Shown here one piece after another: positions 189 to 29,717 of a stretch of 33,676 bases of DNA. Below the pieces are notes generated by a model. It was not told where the DNA came from. It was given only the letters and a program-made list of their open reading frames with translations, and searched no databases. The position numbers and the translations under genes are program-made. The stretch lies in the IMG/VR virus record IMGVR_UViG_3300021446_000034, positions 1-33,676 of that record. One strand, 5' to 3'. Source of the DNA: a virus. Lineage: Duplodnaviria > Caudoviricetes. Every line of letters starts with the position of its first letter. Within the stretch, counting starts at the first letter, position 1.

Positions 189-1457
189 CTACCAATCCAG
201 AGCAGATCCGCCCATACTTTCCTCATTTTCTTCCCAATTACCACTCTTCCAGTCCTCATACTCGTCTTGAGAGAGATTCAATGCTTTCAGTGCCTTACCC
301 TCAGCTCTTGCACTCATTGCTACCTCCATCCGCTCGGATTGATCCAGAGCTTGAACCAGATCAAGGACTACCTTTTTAAAGTAGGTGAAATCGCCACCGA
401 TTCCCCAAGATCCTTCCTCAATGTTTGAAAGTGCCTTGTATAGTTCTGCCTCAGCACTTCCGTCTTCTACGTGTGTTTGTTTTCGTCGGAAATGAGATGG
501 ATACGATTTGTCAATGTAGTTGCCATAGGGTTCAGAAATACGACTCTCTCCCACCATTTCCAAAAGTGCAGTTGCATATTTCCAGTACCGATAATCGTTG
601 TCCGGACCAGCAAATCCCAAAAACTCATCAGCACTGGACATGATTTCGTATGCCACTGTTACCTCTACTCCCCGTAACTGTTTGTCCAGTTCGGAAAGGT
701 TGTTCCGCCAATTTTCATCCAACCAGTGAATGAACTCTTCCGGTTTGATTCCATTACCGATCTCCGCATTACCTTCTCCTTTCAGCTGTTGGTCAACAGC
801 GTCCCATTCACTCTGTTCCCACTCCCGTTGATCGAAGTCCACAGAGTCACTATCACGTTCCGAAAACCGTTGGAGATCGTTTATTGCTGATCGGAGGTCA
901 GGACGTTCCGACAATCGCTCCAAATCCCTTGGTGAGAGGTTTATGTCTTCCTTTTTCACTATCTCTTTTAGTTTTGCCTTTCGTGACCGTTTACCGAGTT
1001 TGAAGTCATGAGTGGTACAGGTTTGTTTGACCTTCCTCGGAACGCTGTACTTGTCATTCGCTGTTCCAATAACCGGACACTTGCCCATCTTTAGAGCCTT
1101 CACTAACGGTGTGAGGTTTGTCCGACCCGGTATGCTGTCGATTTCATCCAACAGAACCAACTGACGGTTTGCATATGGATTACTCGTGAGAGTTGATGCG
1201 AGTTCACGAATGTCTTCAGTTGTCCGTTTATCGCTTGCATTTACTTGGTTGAGTGTCCAACCCATCTTTTCTCGAACGACAAAGGCAGTTGTCGTTTTTC
1301 CCGTACCCGGAGAACCTATGAGTAATTGGGGTTTATCGCCCGGAGTCCAATGTTCAGCCCAATTTTCAATAGCACGAAGTGCAGTGTTATTACCTTGAAT
1401 TTCGTCAAACGATTTGGGACGGTACTTAGACACCCAGTGTTCGTCACCCATTGTCAT
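189..1457 (-). CDS. rfcL: Replication factor C large subunit (clamp loader)
   Basis: WVSKYRPKSFDEIQGN box, Walker A GSPGTGKTT, NASDKRT, Walker B LLDEID, DLRSAINDLQ and a large-subunit-type C-terminal region (YRYWKYA). Confidence 0.9.
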   Translation of the reverse strand: MTMGDEHWVSKYRPKSFDEIQGNNTALRAIENWAEHWTPGDKPQLLIGSPGTGKTTTAFVVREKMGWTLNQVNASDKRTTEDIRELASTLTSNPYANRQLVLLDEIDSIPGRTNLTPLVKALKMGKCPVIGTANDKYSVPRKVKQTCTTHDFKLGKRSRKAKLKEIVKKEDINLSPRDLERLSERPDLRSAINDLQRFSERDSDSVDFDQREWEQSEWDAVDQQLKGEGNAEIGNGIKPEEFIHWLDENWRNNLSELDKQLRGVEVTVAYEIMSSADEFLGFAGPDNDYRYWKYATALLEMVGESRISEPYGNYIDKSYPSHFRRKQTHVEDGSAEAELYKALSNIEEGSWGIGGDFTYFKKVVLDLVQALDQSERMEVAMSARAEGKALKALNLSQDEYEDWKSGNWEENEESMGGSALDW

Positions 1458-1851
1458 TCGCTTCCTCTAAATCTTTGATTATTTGTTCTACATCCACGTC
1501 AAATGCAGATTCATCAATTCTCTCCATCACAAACTGTGTATATTTGCCTCTTTTCTCTCCGCTATACTCCGCTTGGATATTTTGTTGTCCCTCAAGCACA
1601 CCCTCAATGGCGTCTAAACGGATTTCTATTTCCTCTAACTGCTCGTCAGTCTGGATGTTTATCAACCTTCTACGGATTTCGTCTGCATAAGTCTCTACTT
1701 CCTTTTTGGCTGCTTCGGGATGGACGTTCGTCTTTTTCATTTCTTTTATTACTTTTTCCTCAACCACTTGCTCCAAATGAGAACTTGAGATAGAATCTTC
1801 GGTAACATACTCCGCTAACTCCTCTACTACATCTGCATCAGAACATGACAT
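1444..1851 (-). CDS. Hypothetical acidic protein carrying the shared NVxTDEE module
   Basis: 135 aa acidic ORF overlapping the rfcL start; contains LINIQTDEQLEEIEIRLDAI. Confidence 0.75.
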   Translation of the reverse strand: MSCSDADVVEELAEYVTEDSISSSHLEQVVEEKVIKEMKKTNVHPEAAKKEVETYADEIRRRLINIQTDEQLEEIEIRLDAIEGVLEGQQNIQAEYSGEKRGKYTQFVMERIDESAFDVDVEQIIKDLEEANDNG

Positions 1852-27667: not shown

Positions 27668-27880
27668 TCAATCCCCACGCTCTTTCCGTAACTCGTCTTC
27701 CCACAATTTTTGGCGTAGAGAGTCAACTGCCCGTTCCAAAGTAAGACCAGTCGCAATTCTTGACTCCGTTTCTGGAGCATCATACGACAAACACACCCAC
27801 TCTTTCGGAGGCCCGTCTCCTATTGATGAATCGTACACTGTCGTATTTATTTCAAGAAACTCAGGATTGAGGTCAAACAC
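27668..27880 (-). CDS. Hypothetical protein
   Basis: 70 aa ORF overlapping the ERCC4 stop. Confidence 0.55.
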   Translation of the reverse strand: MFDLNPEFLEINTTVYDSSIGDGPPKEWVCLSYDAPETESRIATGLTLERAVDSLRQKLWEDELRKERGD

Positions 27881-28541
27881 TCCCCAACTCCTCCTTTATT
27901 GTCTTCGCCCGTTTTTCACCAATTCCTTCTACACCCTCTATTTCCTGATCGTCGGCGCTTAACAGAGCAGTCATACTCGGAAAACGCTCGTACAACTTTT
28001 CAGCTGTGGATGGTCCAATACCACTCAAACAACCGAAAATCTGCATCGTAACAGGTCTATCGGTGTCAACTGATACTTGGTTGGTATATGAGGTAGTAGG
28101 CTCTTCAATGTGTTTCCGCGCCAACCGAACCACCATATCAACCAGCAACGCGGTATTGGAACACGGTATTACCGGTATTCCTTTCCGTGCCATCGTTGAC
28201 GCCATATGACCACGGATCGAGGAACCCCCCATATTCGTGTGTGTCAACGATTCCGTCTCCGACAAATCTCCATCTACCATCACATACACATTGTCGGATG
28301 CCTCTTGCATATTCTCTATCTGTTTTGGGAGACGGCCCTCAAGCAGTGAGGAGGCGTAATCACTCGGCGTTTTCCGTTCTACCATGAGAGACGATTTCTC
28401 AACAACCAGATCCCCGTACTGGAGTTTATCCAGAACGTAATCCTCTACCTCTTCATGCATTGCGAGTTCCCGTACTACCTCTTGTGTTTCTTCCGTATCT
28501 TCGTGGATGTCTACTTTGACAGTTACTTGTTGTTTGCTCAT
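27873..28541 (-). CDS. ERCC4/XPF structure-specific endonuclease with tandem HhH
   Basis: VDIHE, GDLVV, VERKTPSDYASS, GRLPKQ; HhH motifs LSGIGPSTA and VEGIGEKRA. Confidence 0.9.
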   Translation of the reverse strand: MSKQQVTVKVDIHEDTEETQEVVRELAMHEEVEDYVLDKLQYGDLVVEKSSLMVERKTPSDYASSLLEGRLPKQIENMQEASDNVYVMVDGDLSETESLTHTNMGGSSIRGHMASTMARKGIPVIPCSNTALLVDMVVRLARKHIEEPTTSYTNQVSVDTDRPVTMQIFGCLSGIGPSTAEKLYERFPSMTALLSADDQEIEGVEGIGEKRAKTIKEELGSV

Positions 28542-28577: not shown

Positions 28578-28610
28578 TGGCTGTCGGAGGAATTGAACCC
28601 CCAAACAACC
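28578..28610 (-). ncRNA. tRNA minihelix (acceptor stem plus T arm) t-element
   Basis: GGTTGTT-T-GGGGG-TTCAATT-CCTCC-GACAGCC-A: 7-bp acceptor stem, 5-bp T stem, canonical T loop and discriminator A, with no D or anticodon arms. Confidence 0.65.
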
Positions 28611-28712
28611 GTGCCGAAGTAGATAAGGAGACATCTCCCTACCTACTCAAGTCCCCAAAGCGCTCACAGTCCCCAGTTGTGAGCGATAAGCAGTTTTAGG
28701 TGATGCCAGCAC
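28611..28712 (-). ncRNA. About 100-nt structured RNA between two tRNA-like elements
   Basis: Closing stem GTGCTG/CGGCAC encloses an 8-bp hairpin (CGCTCACA/TGTGAGCG) and a 13-bp hairpin (AGTAGGTAGGGAG/CTCCTTATCTACT). Confidence 0.5.
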
Positions 28713-28715
28713 CAG

Positions 28716-28814
28716 TGGGGGTGACAGGAATTGCACCTGTCCACGACACCGGAAGGTCAGCAAGAGGTGTTAGAGGATGGTCTCAATCGGCTTTGTCGTG
28801 CGTCTACAAGCCCC
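28716..28814 (-). ncRNA. tRNA-like RNA lacking a D arm and with an extended central stem
   Basis: GGGGCTTG...CACGACA/TGTCGTG stem, then G, T arm ACAGG-TGCAATT-CCTGT and 3' CACCCCC-A. Confidence 0.5.
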
Positions 28815-28816
28815 TC

Positions 28817-28860
28817 AAAAATACCCTTCAGGAGGATCAGACAGTTCCTCCATCAAGGAT
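28817..28860 (-). terminator. Hairpin followed by a U tract (terminator-like or part of the ncRNA)
   Basis: ATCCTT/AAGGGT plus GGAGGA/TCCTCC stems, followed by ATTTTT. Confidence 0.35.
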
Positions 28861-29084
28861 GCCTGTATTGCTGGCTTCTGGTGCAACAATATGCCACACT
28901 CCAATCCCGACGAACCATGTGCGTAGTTGCTATCTCTCTGATGGGGGAGTAGGAGATGCGAACCAAGACAAACGAACCGTGTGCGGTGGTTGAGATGACT
29001 CCGACGTTTTGACGGAGATTTGTTGTTCATTGAATCAATACGACAGCACCAGAAAGCCGATGCCAAACACCGGACAGGCCCGGT
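28861..29084 (-). ncRNA. About 220-nt structured RNA with long-range closing helix, probable pseudoknot and internal direct repeat
   Basis: GGCTTTCTGGTGC (29058-29046) pairs with GCACCAGAAGCC (28884-28873). The loop GCCTGT of hairpin ACCGG/CCGGT is complementary to the distal ACAGGC (28866-28861). Confidence 0.5.
28910..28985. repeat. 14-nt direct repeat ACGAACCRTGTGCG, two copies with a 62-nt period, CRISPR-repeat-like
   Basis: 28910-28923 ACGAACCATGTGCG and 28972-28985 ACGAACCGTGTGCG; each is followed within 2-3 nt by GTTG. Confidence 0.6.
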
Positions 29085-29087
29085 TAA

Positions 29088-29162
29088 TAGGCGATAGCGG
29101 ATTTGAACCGCTGGCACTGACGATGTAAGCGTCAGACTCTAACCAGACTGAGTTAATCGCCT
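29088..29162 (-). tRNA. tRNA-Val(TAC), CCA not encoded
   Basis: Full cloverleaf: AGGCGAT / ACTC-AGTCTGGTTA-GAGT / TGACG-CT TAC AT-CGTCA / AGCGG-TTCAAAT-CCGCT / ATCGCCT-A. Confidence 0.93.
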
Positions 29163-29234
29163 ACTGAACTACTTATGTCTCCGCGAGTTGTTCCTCACTC
29201 CTGTTCTAAGGAGCGTGTGTTGGTTCTGAGACAT

Positions 29235-29266
29235 TTCAAAGACAGAGTAGTAGTAAGTATCCTATT
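29235..29266 (-). promoter_or_regulatory. Bipartite motif copy 3 (AATAGGATACTTAC-N12-TTTGAA) upstream of the RNA cluster
   Basis: Matches the copy at 18798-18829. Confidence 0.5.
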
Positions 29267-29309
29267 CATACTGAAACGTCATCACAAACAACTGAGAGCC
29301 TTAGAGAAG

Positions 29310-29717
29310 TTACACTACATTCATCTTCTCCAGCTCTTCTTCCATTTGCCTCTGAAATCTATCTCCTCCCTGTTCTGCCTCTCTAATCAACGAAGTGTAA
29401 GCACTATACTCACCAAAATTCTCTTTATATACCAGCACCTCTGCCCTCTGGATCGTTTCGGGGAGCATACAGAACATCATCCCGAAACTACCCGTAACGG
29501 AAAACGGAATGAGGTACTTGTCGTGTTCTAATTTCCCGTCAATTCCTTGTTCCAATACTGGTTCGTTTATTGGATGGTTGTTGAAGTTCCAGACCACTGT
29601 ATCCTGATACAGATACGGCTGTCTAATTCTCCGTCGGAGAAAAGACTGAACCTCCTCAACAGTCGTCTGGTTGGTCATCCTCAACGAGTCGCTTTTGTAA
29701 TTATTTGTTCTACTCAT
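29310..29717 (-). CDS. Hypothetical protein
   Basis: 135 aa ORF overlapping the upstream stop. Confidence 0.6.
   Translation of the reverse strand: MSRTNNYKSDSLRMTNQTTVEEVQSFLRRRIRQPYLYQDTVVWNFNNHPINEPVLEQGIDGKLEHDKYLIPFSVTGSFGMMFCMLPETIQRAEVLVYKENFGEYSAYTSLIREAEQGGDRFQRQMEEELEKMNVV

Follow-up and report, generated by a model that had tools for sequence, protein, structure and literature searches.

The window, by which we mean the whole stretch of DNA analysed, is a single virus contig, 33,676 bases long, with its replication genes on the minus strand. On the basis of 39–45 % protein identity to HVTV-1/HCTV-1, the virus is a Druskaviridae-like halovirus. The two genes that flank the locus described here, encoding an ERCC4 nuclease and a homologue of gp54, are 39–45 % identical to those of HVTV-1, HVTV-2, HCTV-1, HCTV-5 and HCTV-16, and the proteins nearest to those of the window (53–75 % identity) are encoded on Logan contigs. 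In the four Druskaviridae records that were opened, on which the assignment of these relatives is based, a tRNA-Gln gene lies beside gp54 and protein genes take the place of the 770-nt gap found in the window (4 of 4 records); none of the four has a tRNA-like element other than tRNA-Gln at this locus. The features of the gap and its neighbours, in the direction of transcription, are:

29310–29717, minus strand: upstream neighbour, homologue of gp54 of HVTV-1/HCTV-1 (41–45 % identity)
29235–29277, minus strand: promoter-like motif, 43 nt, repeated in the window; it opens the gap and ends just ahead of the ATG of the leader stem
29175–29234, minus strand: leader closed by a 7-bp stem (29234–29228/29181–29175), z −3.0
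29088–29162, minus strand: tRNA-Val(UAC), CCA not encoded (ARAGORN; Rfam, 59.2 bits)
28859–29087, minus strand: non-coding spacer, initially annotated as a 220-nt RNA, z −0.9
28817–28858, minus strand: hairpin (28858–28824) and U5 (28821–28817), z −2.9
28716–28814, minus strand: TLE1, a D-armless tRNA-like element, T-stem P 0.94–0.99
28653–28720, minus strand: rival long hairpin that covers the 3′ strand of the TLE1 acceptor and the discriminator, P 0.95–0.98 in the precursor
28611–28715, minus strand: candidate released RNA, 105 nt, with a 6-bp closing stem and two hairpins, one of 14 bp, z −3.7
28578–28610, minus strand: acceptor plus T-arm minihelix, 12 bp, with a 1-nt connector and discriminator A, found in 0 of 20,000 shuffles
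27873–28541, minus strand: ERCC4 nuclease gene (Pfam PF02732; 39–42 % identity to Druskaviridae Hef/ERCC4)

Three further observations concern the protein genes. The family B DNA polymerase (6844–4162, minus strand), which is one gene in HVTV-1, has its exonuclease and polymerase halves in two adjoining genes. The ribonucleotide reductase (23937–20383, minus strand) contains an internal LAGLIDADG domain and is likely to carry an intein. The gp54-like protein (29717–29310, minus strand), considered as a possible RNA-handling partner, gave only weak Atlas matches (0.83–0.85, all <0.9), to ATG8/ATG12 ubiquitin-like clusters, and these are a lead only.

The 770-nt gap is non-coding. In a codon model trained on 16 genes of the window, its eight ORFs score −0.17 to 0.03, against 0.07–0.41 for the 13 held-out genes used to test the model. 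These ORFs have few acidic residues, and a protein search with the 100-codon ORF of the gap returned no homologue. The leader also overlaps a 21-codon ORF (29234–29169) with a codon score of −0.04, zero acidic residues and no coding signal.

The promoter-like motif that headed the cluster in the initial annotation is present at 29277–29235 and has a second copy at approximately 18841–18798 (minus strand), in another intergenic gap, with a score of 37 that was equalled by 0 of 100 shuffled queries. The second copy is located 70 nt upstream of a DNA methyltransferase gene. Another contig of sequencing run X1 includes 29227–29277 with one difference, between unrelated flanks. We infer that the repeated motif is a viral promoter. 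The stem proposed for the leader is supported by its z score and by a pairing probability of 0.91 when the pair span is limited to ≤250 nt, but the probability is 0.02 if no span limit is applied.

The tRNA-Val was called by both ARAGORN and Rfam, and 29162–29088 forms a full cloverleaf, with a bit score well over the Rfam cut-off of 29. Beyond the tRNA-Val, the searches suggested for the cluster gave only Rfam matches below the cut-off and no further ARAGORN tRNA, and no 5S rRNA was detected by Rfam in the window. In 27 genes of the window, 165 of 610 Val codons are GTA, compared with 21 of 322 in nine genes of Haloferax volcanii pHV4, a proxy that may not be the host of this virus; the tRNA-Val likely supplies the GUA codon.

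The part of the gap that follows the tRNA had been described as a structured RNA of roughly 220 nt, and this description was not upheld, as its stability does not exceed that of shuffled sequences (z score in the list above). The 12-bp closing helix of the spacer (29058–29046/28884–28873) has a probability of 0.88 when the spacer is folded alone and of 0.04–0.41 in longer contexts; its 5′ strand has two rival partners, and 28801–28786 is a rival partner for the helix. The best inverted repeat of the spacer was equalled by 10 of 200 shuffles, and the score of two 23-nt repeats 62 nt apart by 8 of 300, both borderline values. The next element, a hairpin with a U tract, was found as first described, and its U5 is the sole run of ≥4 U between the promoter and ERCC4. 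It is possible that this hairpin is a leaky terminator. It also has tandem G.A, A.G and U.U pairs on a G-C run, resembling what we take to be the box C/D k-turn consensus, with a short bulge, and from this likeness it is a possible L7Ae site.

A T-arm pattern was found three times in the whole window, searched on both strands, and all three are within the cluster (in the tRNA, at 28740 and at 28602). When the 545 nt that follow the tRNA were shuffled 20,000 times, 64 shuffles had one T-arm, none had two or more and none had a perfect minihelix, for a loop pattern that was fixed after the sequence had been seen and that permits G at position 55. G55 loops are found in 2 of the 29 T-arms of one related halovirus tRNA cluster. 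The clean minihelix of the initial annotation is fully paired (33 nt, 12/12 pairs, P 0.82–0.95, z −3.7) and forms in every context folded, as do the T-stem of TLE1 and the 14-bp hairpin. It is a plausible substrate for RNase P and tRNase Z. The ERCC4 start lies 36 nt past the minihelix discriminator, with no U-run in between.

TLE1 consists of a 6-bp acceptor with one C.C mismatch, an 8-nt linker, a 7-bp side helix and a 6-bp T-stem, with a G55 T-loop, a discriminator A and a 67-nt connector. The T-arm and the side helix of this proposed D-armless element are good, and a perfect 7-bp helix abutting the T-stem was seen in only 86 of 20,000 shuffles. However, the acceptor is within chance (5/6 pairs, equalled in 1889 of 5000 shuffles) and has a probability of ≤0.02 in all six contexts folded, and the fold as a whole is no better than shuffles (z −0.5). 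For comparison, ViennaRNA gave an acceptor probability of <0.1 for 3 and >0.5 for 7 of 19 host t-elements (the plus-strand loci among 34), on a measure that counts any upstream partner and on which TLE1 reaches 0.19. Neither ARAGORN nor cmscan at E values up to 10 detected a D or anticodon arm in TLE1 or the minihelix. An anticodon-like 4-bp hairpin at 28713–28699 was rejected (P 0.00).

The 105-nt piece exactly fills the interval between the discriminator at 28716 and the first minihelix base at 28610, and the spacings initially given for a closed two-hairpin RNA of about 100 nt are exact. The stability of this RNA was reached by 0 of 200 shuffles, and its 14-bp hairpin has a probability of 0.97–0.98 in all contexts. 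It is well folded when excised, but its closing stem (28712/28611) has a probability of 0.95 in the excised RNA and 0.00 in the precursor. The regulatory role suggested for such RNAs is unsupported, and comparison of the cluster with the mRNA strand of the window and with three host rRNA operons gave no antisense stretch beyond chance. Because no antisense target was found, the 105-nt RNA is likelier to bind protein than to act by base pairing. An 8-nt G-rich word occurs in it twice, 18 nt apart (28675–28668 and 28657–28650, minus strand), and the two copies are possible protein-binding sites. Separately, the seven bases at 28704–28698 (minus strand) equal the 16S rRNA 3′ end in three host operons, perhaps by chance; they fall in a stretch resembling the NLPC-P60 consensus.

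We conclude that the cassette is real, ordered and non-coding and that it includes two tRNA mimics; it is less tidy than first described and known from one genome. The reading that we tentatively prefer is that it contains a tRNA-Val and two D-armless mimics, TLE1 and the minihelix, and that the mimics may be cut marks for the host RNase P and tRNase Z, releasing the 105-nt RNA. Excision by host enzymes, as first proposed, is thus retained as the best single reading; it is firm for the minihelix, doubtful for TLE1 and unsupported for the 220-nt piece, and the cleavage itself is a prediction.

The principal difficulty is the rival long hairpin. The precursor fold that includes it is predicted at −93.5 kcal/mol, against −86.1 kcal/mol for the fold initially proposed, a gap of 7.4 kcal/mol, and in the predicted precursor fold the role of TLE1 as the left-hand cut mark is doubtful. 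The predicted fold instead places the first T-arm in a larger RNA with a closed stem (28720–28653) and the 14-bp hairpin (z −3.6 for this fold). Such an RNA would be a YrlA-like, circularly permuted tRNA mimic whose 3′ end is set by a cut at the minihelix alone. YrlA RNAs have a T arm, a closed acceptor stem and a D arm in that order (PMC4201824), and the rival fold likewise runs from T-arm to closed stem to a further hairpin. An intergenic element with this arm order is also found in a related 104-kb halovirus, G002 (L139:14617–14752, plus strand), where a closing helix and a long arm are followed by a T-arm, a closed 7-bp stem and a small arm; it has a z score of −1.3 and no Rfam match. However, in our cluster the T-stem and the closed stem are two unpaired bases apart, which precludes a 12-bp stack and the exact stacking of YrlA, and the 7-bp side helix of TLE1 is left unexplained. 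The Ro-binding motif GNCGAAN0-1G, described near the 5′ end of YrlA RNAs (PMC4201824), is missing. There was no Rfam match to a Y RNA at E values up to 10. For a YrlA RNA, a Ro60 gene would be expected within 4 kb, but 51 ORFs searched with Pfam contained no TROVE domain, in a contig fragment that reaches >4 kb on either side. We regard a permuted RNA of this kind as rather unlikely.

Searches for relatives of the non-tRNA parts of the gap found no homologue by blastn against phages and plasmids, among 35, 80 and 28 fetched loci, or in 4 plus 401 haloarchaeal genomes. The genome searches yielded 10 matches of approximately 30 nt each, six of them to one stretch of a transposon-type-looking ORF. 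Covariance models built from single sequences, one for the 105-nt piece and one for a 230-nt piece, found no homologue in 61 sources (772 kb), and the best outside match (14.8 bits) involved closing helices alone. Matches to four DNA patterns of the cluster in viral contigs were judged to be chance. No variants of the cluster were present in the contigs of four DNA runs, of which X1 alone spans it. X1 is a halite metagenome from which the virus may come, and the runs listed as containing the stretch included none of RNA.

This lack of detected conservation would suit an origin of the mimics as decayed tRNA genes, left from a formerly larger tRNA cluster and with no present role. Clusters of that kind are known from two uncultured Druskaviridae-like viruses, on contigs L147 (G004) and L141 (G002), with approximately 24–30 tRNA matches (24 and about 28 genes in the two clusters) that include damaged genes and orphan T-arms. 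The G55 loop shared with one such cluster points the same way, and putative tRNA pseudogenes are reported for HGTV-1 (PMC13532342). However, a 12-bp minihelix that is paired throughout and has a 1-nt connector is not a ready outcome of decay, the Rfam tRNA model sees no remnant of a D or anticodon arm in it, and the hairpins flanking it show no damage, their G.U pairs favouring this strand (z −4.2 vs −2.7). Decay seems to us an improbable account. On L141, at approximately 7618 (plus strand), what resembles the end of an HNH nuclease frame is followed by the 3′ half of a tRNA, which may mean that a mobile element has split a tRNA gene.

Analogues of the mimics were found in related haloviruses. 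On contig L051, which encodes an ERCC4 protein (38 %) and a distant gp54-like protein (19 %), a 470-nt non-coding gap (1167–1636, plus strand) precedes the gp54-like gene and opens with a D-armless element (1270–1327). This element has a 6+6 split, 12/12 pairs, the T-loop of the minihelix and an acceptor probability of 1.0. In a descriptor scan of 920 kb, it and the minihelix of the window were the two top matches lacking a cloverleaf; TLE1 fell below the cut, three lower matches look like chance, and the 100 kb of HVTV-1 that were scanned had no such element above the score cut. The L051 and G002 analogues are single cases, chosen by eye. Elsewhere in the L051 gap, an 11-bp helix closes approximately 190 nt with no Rfam match. 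Another structured gap, with two G+C-rich hairpins after TATA-like runs, precedes a gp54 homologue at L014:3427–3698 (plus strand), and it perhaps contains a degenerate tRNA-like element. A broader proposal, which we consider less likely than not, is that haloviruses build minimal tRNA mimics of several forms (minihelix, D-armless and circularly permuted) and that these constitute a natural, virus-encoded t-element sandwich, from which host RNase P and tRNase Z would excise small RNAs of a new family.

We also considered known catalytic or defence RNAs, namely a self-cleaving ribozyme after the tRNA, a pair of CRISPR pseudo-repeats or a two-piece tmRNA. In gut phages, theta ribozymes have been proposed to remove 3′ trailers from tRNAs (PMC10879173); like the cluster, they combine a tRNA-like 3′ end with a structured RNA that immediately follows it in a virus. 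However, they have an HDV-type topology, a nested double pseudoknot with a catalytic C, for which the cluster gave no Rfam match and 0 matches to an unvalidated descriptor lacking a positive control. Searches with short patterns also led us to reject hammerhead, twister and C-box motifs. The two repeats 62 nt apart in the spacer resemble part of an H. volcanii repeat, on the opposite strand, but their scores as CRISPR pseudo-repeats are 18–22.5 compared with 24–24.5 for ordinary coding stretches of the window; only H. volcanii repeats, which may not be those of the host, were used in this comparison. A weak match to NLPC-P60 RNA (RF03033; 18.0 bits, E 2.3) is far under the cut-off of 53.7, and its 5′ motif has three chance matches in coding DNA. 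The permuted tmRNA model gave 12.4 bits against a cut-off of 47, and ARAGORN found no tmRNA; at the 3:70 pair, which is G3.U70 in tmRNA, TLE1 has G-C and the minihelix has U.G. We consider a known RNA of any of these types very improbable.

Under the preferred reading, in which the mimics are cut marks, one transcript would start from the repeated motif at 29277–29235, and would partly stop and partly read through at U5 (28821–28817). As U5 is directly before TLE1, the downstream half needs read-through. RNase P would cut before 29162, 28814 and 28610, and tRNase Z after 29088, 28716 and 28578, the two enzymes together freeing the tRNA-Val. Transcripts that read through would be cut on either side of the minihelix, so that the RNA upstream ends at 28611; this is the likeliest of the cuts, and would leave the ERCC4 mRNA with a 36-nt leader whose 5′ end is made by processing. 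TLE1 might fold with the aid of enzyme binding, salt or tertiary contacts; in that case, cleavage after 28716 would liberate the 105-nt RNA, and its terminal stem could then close.

If this reading is correct, an archaeal virus matures its own non-tRNA RNAs using the tRNA-processing enzymes of its host, the 105-nt RNA is a novel small RNA whose ends are predicted exactly, and the 33-nt element is shorter than all 33 host t-elements measured. To our knowledge, t-element excision in haloarchaea has so far been limited to the 5S leader and an engineered crRNA cassette. In the literature searched, which did not extend to most subscription papers, we found no report of an archaeal virus with t-elements. 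What the tRNAs of archaeal viruses do is stated to lack systematic study (PMC13532342). RNase P, tRNase Z and a t-element assay all exist in H. volcanii.

The closest known counterparts are the t-elements of haloarchaeal 5S rRNA leaders. A total of 37 5S rRNA loci were fetched and 34 were analysed, one per genome, with three second copies omitted. In 33 of the 34 leaders, there is a discriminator directly adjoining the 5S RNA, with a T-loop 12 nt ahead of it, and no D arm. The acceptor/T-arm split of these 33 is 6+6 in 26, 5+7 in six and 7+5 in one, the connectors are 9–46 nt long, and there is usually one acceptor mismatch. In an alignment of 28 of the 33, 98.7 % of cells are paired and 8 of 11 pairs show two-sided change, which is strong covariation. 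The host elements therefore share the geometry of the viral mimics, namely a 12-bp acceptor/T stack (12/12 pairs in the minihelix and 11/12 in TLE1) without a D arm, and TLE1 is further like them in its 6+6 split, its one acceptor mismatch and the structured RNA right after its discriminator. The tRNA mimicry, the viral and haloarchaeal setting and the t-element precedent of the initial annotation all stand. However, the acceptor sequence of the host elements is conserved and their connector contains a GG; the mimics lack both, come as a pair, have connectors of 67 and 1 nt and have no 5S rRNA. A covariance model of the 28 aligned host t-elements, a short model that scores even tRNA T-arms weakly, matched neither mimic at E values up to 10. 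As the geometry fits but the connectors and the covariance model do not, the mimics likely act like t-elements without belonging to the host family.

Taken together, punctuation by t-elements is favoured by the T-arm and minihelix statistics, the non-coding scores, the host 5S-leader geometry, the fold of the excised 105-nt RNA, the 6+6 element of L051 and the failures of ViennaRNA on host elements. Against it are the more stable rival hairpin, the chance-level acceptor of TLE1, the off-range connectors, the miss by the host model, the position of U5, the lack of a homologue in the searches made, the occurrence of a tRNA-Gln alone at this locus in the four Druskaviridae records opened, and the negative scan of 100 kb of HVTV-1.

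Small non-coding RNAs beside phage tRNA genes have a precedent in RNA C and RNA D (species 1 and 2) of phage T4, the role of which is given as unknown (PMC3014915, PMC9697503). The T4 genes rnaC and rnaD directly follow a tRNA, and rnaC has a 3′-terminal T-arm and no cloverleaf. By analogy, the tRNA-like pieces might themselves be the products, stable tRNA-shaped RNAs that serve as decoys for host proteins that bind or cut tRNA, with the 105-nt RNA a by-product; the L051 element, alone at the start of its gap, would fit this. However, T4 is a bacterial phage, its RNAs lack a free minihelix, and kinship was rejected because the sequence likeness of the cluster to rnaC and rnaD is at background. 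For a product, a 33-nt minihelix would also be small, and TLE1 is less ordered than the 105-nt piece (z −0.5 vs −3.7). We consider it unlikely that the mimics are the products, though this is the foremost alternative to the mimics as cut marks.

More generally, tRNA-like candidates are reported in viruses (PMC10690425) and t-elements have been described in plant mitochondria (PMC1920247). In Haloferax, t-elements on both sides of a crRNA release it (PMC4326828). The icrRNA cassette engineered in H. volcanii is synthetic and carries a crRNA, whereas the layout described here is natural and viral, with a cargo that matches no family. In both, a small RNA is located between two tRNA-like marks under one promoter (PMC4326828 for the cassette).
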